From the IMG/VR virus record IMGVR_UViG_2703718801_000021, positions 1 to 9,473 of that record: a stretch of 9,473 bases of DNA; one strand, 5' to 3'. This DNA comes from a virus (taxonomy: Duplodnaviria > Heunggongvirae > Uroviricota > Caudoviricetes). The translations under genes and the position numbers were made by a program. Shown piece after piece: positions 6,618 through 7,067 of this stretch (the first letter of the stretch is position 1; the number at the start of each line of letters is the position of its first letter). The notes below the pieces were generated by a model that had not been told where the DNA came from, ran no database searches, and worked only from the letters and a program-made list of their open reading frames with translations.

Positions 6618-7067
6618 TTACTTAACCAATGATGCTGCATATTCGATAAGGTAAAGTTTTGGGGCCAGCCAAATTTTTAACCAAGTCATATTGGTTACTA
6701 CACCAATAATAAAAATCCCCCACAGAGTCAAAACTCCAACCAATGGCATGATAAGAAGGTTAACATCTCCTTTGCTATCCCAAACCATTGTCGGCCTGTA
6801 TTTGGGATTTCCCCTCTCCCATGAGTATCCTTCATCACCGATTTTACCTGTCTCAACTCTTTGGCACTGCTTCTTCATAAACCAGAAAACCAGTGGGATT
6901 GTTAGAATGGCTATTAATGTTTTAATCAGACTGTCAACCATATTCCATAGCAGCAACTGATGAACAACATCAGGAATCTGTGCTTGGCTAAATGAAACAG
7001 CAGCATCTATTCCATTGCTGGCTTTTTGCAGTAGTTCTACGAGAATCTTGTTTGCTTGTTCTTCCAT
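6618..7067 (-). CDS. Predicted inner-membrane protein, 149 aa, two hydrophobic helices; possible superinfection-exclusion function by position
   Basis: ATG at 7067 is preceded by AAGGTGA. Hydrophobic segments LIKTLIAILTIPLVFWF and LLIMPLVGVLTLWGIFIIGVV. It sits between ral and cIII, where lambdoid phages place sieB or gene 17-type exclusion genes. Homology is not established. Confidence 0.55.
   Translation of the reverse strand: MEEQANKILVELLQKASNGIDAAVSFSQAQIPDVVHQLLLWNMVDSLIKTLIAILTIPLVFWFMKKQCQRVETGKIGDEGYSWERGNPKYRPTMVWDSKGDVNLLIMPLVGVLTLWGIFIIGVVTNMTWLKIWLAPKLYLIEYAASLVK

Follow-up and report, generated by a model that had tools for sequence, protein, structure and literature searches.

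ORF149, at positions 6618-7067 on the minus strand, is a genuine gene under purifying selection and codes for a 149-aa protein with two transmembrane (TM) helices that belongs to the PHROG 3054 family and is a homolog of gene 34 of phage Sf6. The constrained part of the protein is its two ends; the membrane core between them (TM1-loop-TM2) is a cassette that phages exchange, and its breakpoints are sharp. Both sequence and family are present in existing catalogues, with no function assigned. The gene lies in the leftward (PL) operon of the window, the 9,473-nt stretch of viral DNA analysed here, which is the left arm of a lambdoid prophage. As inferred from the layout of this operon, ORF149 is probably an N-dependent delayed-early lytic gene that is not expressed by the repressed prophage. 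As to its role, an early lytic-phase protein that acts at the cell envelope, for example in Imm-like exclusion, is suggested tentatively and by analogy.

Gene and protein features

The reading frame opens with an ATG and was found exactly as given in the initial annotation. Its ribosome-binding site is strong; the Shine-Dalgarno sequence AAGGTGA (7071-7077, minus strand), read from the sequence, lies 3 nt 5' of the start codon. For 52 unique same-length alleles from 80 IMG/VR loci, dN/dS is 0.22 overall. ORF149 is a real gene, as this ratio and the family's approximately 1,883 cluster representatives show. That it is a chance reading frame or a decaying remnant is practically out of the question: only the lack of annotation speaks for this, against the strong Shine-Dalgarno sequence, thousands of full-length homologs, a confident AF2 model and dN/dS values that fall to 0.07-0.09 at the termini, so that the selection analysis effectively refutes it.

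Kyte-Doolittle windows peak at residues 46-64 (2.0) and 104-124 (2.45), for which the Hessa-type dGapp is +1.6 and -0.9 kcal/mol, respectively. The C-terminal helix scores about +9 on the same scale, and therefore two TM helices are counted and not three. TMHMM also places 2 TMs in an ORF149 homolog (Silas et al., Supp. File 3, bioRxiv 10.1101/2023.04.06.535777), which bears out the two hydrophobic helices described initially. From these helices the product is predicted, by inference, to be an inner-membrane protein.

Domain layout and exchange of the core

The protein consists of conserved ends around a variable core, all encoded on the minus strand. The N-terminal helical segment (codons 1-41, 6945-7067; MEEQ..GIDAAV.F.QAQIPDVV.QLL.W) is conserved in alignments and is 97% identical to Sf6 at the DNA level. 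The core (codons 42-128, 6684-6943) is without DNA similarity to Sf6 or SPN9CC and is divided by hydropathy into TM1 (6876-6932), loop (6759-6875) and TM2 (6696-6758). The C-terminal helix (codons 129-149, 6621-6683), which reads WLKIWLAPKLYLIEYAASLVK, is again conserved in alignments. Near-invariant residues of the N-terminus in the family alignments are F26, P32, V34, Q37, L38, L39 and W41. Those conserved at the C-terminus are A135, P136, K137, L140, E142 and Y143; A135, P136, K137 and L140 are invariant in alignments A1 and A2 and nearly so in A3. The C-terminal family motif of alignments A1-A3, W-L-x-I-W-I-A-P-K-x-x-L-x-E-Y-A-A, is present in ORF149, which thus has the whole PHROG 3054 architecture of a conserved N-terminal segment of ~41 aa, two TMs and the C-terminal motif.

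When alleles of a single core type are compared, the two ends have the lowest dN/dS (N-terminus 0.09, C-terminus 0.07), followed by TM1 (0.16), the loop (0.24) and TM2 (0.84). Positive selection was not detected in the loop (0.24), and TM2 alone is relaxed (0.84). Loop length ranges from 12 to 74 aa across the family. The variable part of the loop (residues ~80-102 of the window protein) falls into recurrent motif classes, such as Y-x-P-T-[LM]-x-x-D-x-x-G-[DE] in the window protein and GE-x-W-T-R-Y...TS..YD. With these classes and its dN/dS of 0.24, the loop is therefore not unconstrained.

Sf6 gene 34 resembles ORF149 in its position after ral in the PL operon and in its two-TM architecture. 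The two proteins are 50% identical overall, with the first 40 and the last 22 aa nearly identical; Sf6 differs in carrying another central cassette, unlike that of the window in DNA over codons 42-128. When the DNA of the window is compared with Sf6, identity is 97% over 7330-6944, similarity is absent over 6943-6684 and identity is 91% over 6683-6445. SPN9CC gives the same breakpoints, and the flanks are 91-97% identical in DNA for Sf6 and SPN9CC. Among 72 homologs with ends at least 85% identical to those of the window protein, the core is between 16 and 100% identical.

Structure and topology

Covariation analysis by MI-APC (343 sequences, Neff 146) pairs residues 5, 8 and 12 with 23, 27 and 30-31, and further pairs (27-138, 23-141, 42-139) connect the N-terminal segment with the C-terminal helix. 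The AF2 model from a diverse alignment is all-helical (mean pLDDT 89.6, pTM 0.67), with helices at 2-68, 106-125, 128-134 and 136-148. In this model the conserved ends reach a pLDDT of ~90 and their helices are continuous with the TM hairpin. An earlier model from a shallow alignment had a pLDDT of 64, and a BFVD search with it retrieved family members only.

Since there are two TMs, the N- and C-terminal ends share one side of the membrane. Across 121 members the loop carries a mean of 6.1 K+R and has more than the flanks in 117 of them; the means for the N-flank and the C-flank are 0.6 and 1.4, respectively. The N-terminal tail is acidic. By the positive-inside rule, this charge bias suggests periplasmic termini and a cytoplasmic loop. 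The short-loop variant of SPN9CC has an acidic loop, so the topology prediction is not uniform across the family, and for this reason the orientation of ORF149 is treated here as a prediction.

PL operon setting and expression

Positions 6400-7400 of the window are 100% identical to the Stx2a phages Stx2_EH2086 and Stx2_EH2085. A PL-like promoter (TTGACT-17-TACTAT; 7918-7946, minus strand) drives the leftward operon. It is the sole sigma-70-like promoter that a consensus scan detected within 6200-8100 and is taken as PL on this basis; the scan found none between ral and ORF149. Downstream of it is a nutL-like site (7827-7871, minus strand), read from the sequence, with a boxA-like element GCTCTTTAA at 7871-7863 and a boxB-like hairpin GGCTGAAAAGCC at 7838-7827, which we take to be boxA and boxB from what is established for the nut sites of lambda. 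The N protein is encoded at 7455-7799 (PF25694, E=6e-32), upstream of ral. A 28-aa orf28 homolog (7310-7396, minus strand; phrog_16060, E=7e-19) overlaps the ral start. The Shine-Dalgarno-plus-start sequences of the orf28 homolog (GAGGTGAGATATGGAAGAAG) and of ORF149 (AAGGTGATATATGGAAGAAC) are alike, which accounts for a 22-nt BLAST match to lambda 34346-34367.

The neighbours of ORF149 are ral (restriction alleviation) on the upstream side (7126-7326, minus strand; PF11058, E=9e-48) and cIII on the downstream side (6244-6378, minus strand; PF08134, E=6e-29), and the location between these two genes given in the initial annotation is correct. The PF08134 match covers residues 37-73 of the 79-aa cIII reading frame called mechanically, and the true start of cIII is probably at the methionines of MMHFQF. 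Kil and Erf come after cIII in the operon. In 80 of 80 close IMG/VR loci, ORF149 is co-directional with N and cI.

Upstream of ORF149 and overlapping the ral stop is a terminator-like hairpin with a T-tract (7116-7137, minus strand; -13.9 kcal/mol, z=-2.7). Immediately 3' of the ORF149 stop there is only a weak stem (-4.3 kcal/mol, z=-0.06). The terminator hairpin that had been placed downstream of the gene does exist, though not right after the stop: a convincing tL2A-type hairpin lies ~150 nt 3' of ORF149 (6451-6468, minus strand; -10.7 kcal/mol, z=-3.5), identified with the help of the tL2A annotation of Sf6. A second terminator-like hairpin precedes cIII (6411-6430, minus strand; -9.9 kcal/mol, z=-2.7). 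ORF149 has no recognisable promoter of its own and stands behind a hairpin in an operon governed by PL and N; its transcription would therefore start at PL and depend on antitermination by N.

Insertion relative to lambda

Window positions 7097-7421 match lambda 34059-34381 (ral, orf28), and 6441-6598 match lambda 33923-34080; the overlap of these two lambda matches occurs twice in the window. The 12-bp direct repeat CAAAAATAAAGG has its right copy at 7108-7119 and its left copy at 6587-6598, both on the plus strand (2 matches, with 0.01 expected by chance). The ORF149 cassette (6599-7107) is a 509-bp insertion with respect to lambda, bounded by this repeat. Together, the lambda matches and the repeat indicate that a 509-bp segment carrying ORF149 was inserted into the T-tract of the ral hairpin. 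Like a moron, the gene forms a discrete insert that separates genes which are neighbours in related phages. On consensus matching it has no sigma-70-like promoter of its own, as a moron would have, and the stem that follows it is weak.

The ea10 gene of lambda (lambda 33523-33922) is cleanly missing at the window junction 6440/6441. Ea10 occupies the ral-cIII interval in lambda, as ORF149 does here, but the two are unrelated and Ea10 lies downstream of the tL2 region, whereas ORF149 is inserted upstream of it.

Family distribution and gene neighbourhood

ORF149 matches phrog_3054 of the PHROGs collection over residues 1-149 (E=4.8e-64), and 121 of 121 diverse relatives match it as well. A word-indexed search returned 516 relatives, whose names are either 'hypothetical' or 'phage transmembrane protein'; a Pfam domain was found in none of them. 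An exhaustive search gave 1,883 50%-identity cluster representatives at E<=1e-3, with 574 at E<=1e-10; the best 150 of the 1,883 range from ~70 to 184 aa, mostly 120-184. By tblastn the gene is found in 177 phage records. The P22-like and lambdoid carriers include Sf6 (gene 34), CUS-3, HK639, HK633, SPN9CC, Oslo and Gally. Other carriers detected by tblastn are Schitoviridae (FSL SP-058, Shigella B2), the ~146-kb Stephanstirmvirinae Paula and PaulScherrer, Pseudomonas phage Bjorn (Bjornvirus) and 63 Vibrio phages. The family thus occurs in temperate (lambdoid, P22-like) and in virulent (N4-like, phi92-like, Vibrio, Pseudomonas) phages. A member is present in 238 of 5,426 complete E. coli genomes (4%), and bacterial genomes with the family belong to Enterobacterales, Pseudomonas and Betaproteobacteria.

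In phi92-like, N4-like and Bjorn phages the gene is located among small early genes. Metagenomic neighbours are RecT, Sak, DNA polymerase, primase, terminase or a cI-like repressor. A recurrent neighbour family was not found across 23 distant loci, and the ORF149 family is therefore considered a single-gene module. In some Vibrio myophages it stands alone between the tail and head genes, on the strand opposite to them, and ends at a bidirectional terminator (4408-4435 and 6401-6422 in the two Vibrio-type myophage loci L007 and L090, respectively). This lone carriage is a different, moron-like mode for the same gene.

These neighbourhoods bear on another membrane role within the phage's own cycle, in the timing of lysis (as an accessory holin or antiholin) or as an anchor for replication or recombination like p16.7 of phi29. 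A small two-TM protein often found near recombinase or replication genes (Erf here; RecT, Sak, DNA polymerase and primase in distant loci) would suit such a role. It is nevertheless unlikely for a gene of accessory character, carried by 238 of the 5,426 E. coli genomes, that is never beside endolysin or spanin genes in the loci examined and whose product has neither a Pfam holin match nor an evident DNA-binding domain. A holin as such was rejected because of the missing Pfam match and because the neighbours are early, recombination or replication genes and not a lysis cassette.

Comparison with known proteins and the exclusion slot

Pfam, NCBIfam and PADLOC scans of ORF149 gave no match; PADLOC assigned no families to it at E<=1, and its 121 relatives had only single-member weak matches to 2TM effector models. 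The Pfam scan of the same number of diverse relatives produced scattered hydrophobic noise only, and a profile search of PDB sequences TM noise only (E>0.4). In BLASTP and hhalign comparisons with gp17, SieB (P22 and lambda), SieA, Imm and Ea10, probabilities did not exceed 0.4%. Identity with SieB was rejected (BLASTP E=9.6, hhalign 0.1-0.2%, no Pfam match), in line with the initial statement that the protein could not be assigned to SieB by sequence. Homology to P22 gene 17 (BLASTP E=0.51 over 9 residues, hhalign 0.1%), to T4 Imm (PF14373; hhalign 0.2%, no Pfam match) and to P22 SieA (hhalign 0.07%) was rejected likewise, so that relatives were found neither in the SieB nor in the gene 17 family, where the initial annotation had proposed to look for them.

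The initial annotation had also described the ral-cIII interval as the classical slot for sieB and for exclusion genes of the gene 17 type, and this argument does not stand up against the reference genomes. In lambda, sieB (34482-35036, plus strand) lies between N and ral; in P22, sieB/esc is found on the opposite strand in the interval from gene 24 to ral, and a sieB promoter is annotated. The corresponding interval of the window between N and ral/orf28 (7327-7454) has only 128 nt, and sieB is absent. Placement of the SieB type was rejected for ORF149, which is co-directional with PL, downstream of ral and, by the consensus scan, without a promoter. Gene 17 of P22 does occupy the ral-c3 interval, but it is annotated with 'allows growth on phage Fels2 lysogen', which we read as an escape function and not as exclusion. 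Furthermore, a true sieB is the neighbour of the ORF149 homolog in Oslo, in SPN9CC and in at least 10 of 80 IMG/VR loci; because the two co-occur, ORF149 is no substitute for sieB. The argument from the slot thus fails on the N-ral position of sieB, the escape annotation of gene 17 and the co-occurrence with sieB.

SieB of lambda and P22 shares with ORF149 its accessory character, membrane association and the same general arm of lambdoid genomes; it differs in its unrelated sequence, its N-ral position on the opposite strand and its expression by the prophage. P22 gene 17 has the interval in the PL operon in common with ORF149 but codes for an unrelated protein of 103 aa. P22 SieA and HK97 gp15, small phage inner-membrane blockers of DNA entry, may be functional analogues; they are expressed by the prophage, whereas ORF149 appears to depend on PL and N, and SieA is without similarity to it. 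T4 Imm, which serves as the favoured functional analogy, is like ORF149 a small two-TM inner-membrane protein and an early product of the infecting phage, though it is unrelated in sequence and has no conserved extramembrane head.

The view implied by the initial annotation, a superinfection-exclusion or abortive-infection determinant expressed by the prophage as an analogue of SieB or SieA, is accordingly quite unlikely. Such a determinant would be expected to be a small membrane protein encoded at a variable, accessory position in a temperate genome, as ORF149 is, and the moron-like lone opposite-strand carriage in the structural module of some Vibrio myophages also agrees with this view. 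The gene, however, stands without its own promoter behind terminator-like hairpins in a repressor-controlled PL operon. Moreover, its product has no similarity to SieB, SieA or the PADLOC models, its homologs co-occur with true sieB, the family is common in virulent phages, and no exclusion phenotype was noted for the SPN9CC homolog orf47.

Literature and the accessory-gene screen

This homolog (AEW47744.1) was included as UDP0047 in the screen of 200 accessory genes by Silas et al. (bioRxiv 10.1101/2023.04.06.535777), in which ECOR strains were challenged with lambda, T2-T7 and P1, the panel having no P22-like phages or heteroimmune lambdoids. It is absent from the genes for which a phenotype was reported there, cell-death triggers and counter-defence included, and UDP47 is not named among the exclusion hits of the screen log, which are UDP79, UDP183, cor and Imm (bioRxiv 10.1101/2023.04.06.535777). 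Partly because of the composition of the phage panel, this result is a weak negative for orf47. The published version of the screen has no data on orf47. According to the same work, the gop-beta-cII abortive system of P4-type satellites is set off by orf184, a different gene of this ral accessory region (bioRxiv 10.1101/2023.04.06.535777). A literature search for functional studies of Sf6 gp34, phrog_3054 or membrane proteins of the PL operon returned none. The deletion-evolution paper on Sf6 covers the nin region only, and the genome paper on the P22-like phage L describes most genes of the early left operon as without known function (PMC8022706).

Proposed role

Most small phage inner-membrane proteins of known function outside lysis cassettes, such as Imm, SieA and HK97 gp15, block the entry of DNA. 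Because of this precedent and the predicted periplasmic head, an Imm-like role is favoured for ORF149, as a possibility. In this model the protein would be made in the lytic phase from PL under N antitermination. Its conserved helical head would contact a conserved component of the cell envelope, on the periplasmic side as the charge bias suggests, and the protein would alter the envelope of the infected cell in favour of the phage. Most plausibly, the inner membrane would be closed to the DNA of secondary phages during lytic growth, in a manner like that of T4 Imm without being related to it. A lytic-phase role is also consistent with the members in Schitoviridae, Stephanstirmvirinae, Bjornvirus and Vibrio phages, where the usual neighbours are early genes or genes of DNA metabolism.

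As a rule, a known exclusion protein is specific for a single group of phages. A head common to unrelated types of phage would fit a host target at least as well as exclusion. ORF149 could equally be a factor of counter-defence or host takeover, whose head binds and neutralises a conserved component of the host inner membrane, for instance a membrane-bound abortive-infection effector, a protease, or a division or secretion factor, in the way of ral, abc2, kil and cIII. This reading is held to be about as probable as exclusion, and as tentative, because of the company in the operon and the spread of the head across unrelated phages: many functions of this kind are encoded in the PL operon (ral, abc2, kil, cIII), and unrelated phages, both virulent and temperate, carry the conserved head, which fits a conserved host target. 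The ral region is, moreover, a recognised hypervariable accessory region that contains counter-defence genes, and gene 17 of P22, in the same interval, is annotated for growth on a Fels-2 lysogen. Against it, orf47 was not among the hits for counter-defence or cell-death triggering in the ECOR screen, neither a conserved partner gene (23 distant loci) nor a host protein was found, and few membrane-anchored anti-defence proteins are known to us.

Returning to the favoured envelope role, a wider and somewhat more speculative proposal is that PHROG 3054 represents a widespread new class of early envelope factors, in which the head would engage one host component and the TM-loop cassette would tune specificity, resulting in broad lytic-phase exclusion or in the neutralisation of membrane immunity. 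Such a class could span virulent and temperate phages of Proteobacteria and would have a bipartite helical head. ORF149 itself is an ordinary unannotated accessory gene in a well-known variable region. The family is very large (~1,900 50%-identity clusters, 4% of complete E. coli genomes), and its unusual design of conserved ends and a swappable membrane core makes it a reasonable experimental target. If a function could be assigned, thousands of phage genes would gain an annotation and a general phage-envelope interaction might come to light; the induction-phase gene set of Stx phages would also gain a membrane protein.

Other features of the window

The recombination module at 4542-5880 (minus strand) is P22-like and comprises abc2 anti-RecBCD (4542-4838; phrog_656, E=1e-56), SSB and Erf. 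The ral/orf28/tL2 segment, in turn, is 96-97% lambda-like; with the P22-like recombination module it forms a clear mosaic joint inside a single PL operon, that of an Stx2a phage. At 2922-3635 and 3622-4080 (minus strand), adjacent genes matching phrog_250 and phrog_368 have nearly the same N-terminus (MS[K/E]INY..LREAA..) and look like a tandem paralog pair with differing C-terminal parts. A hairpin at 8021-8042 (AACCCGAC..GTCGGGTT), just 3' of the cI-like repressor gene, is symmetric and GC-rich, has T-runs on both strands and is probably the terminator of the immunity transcript.
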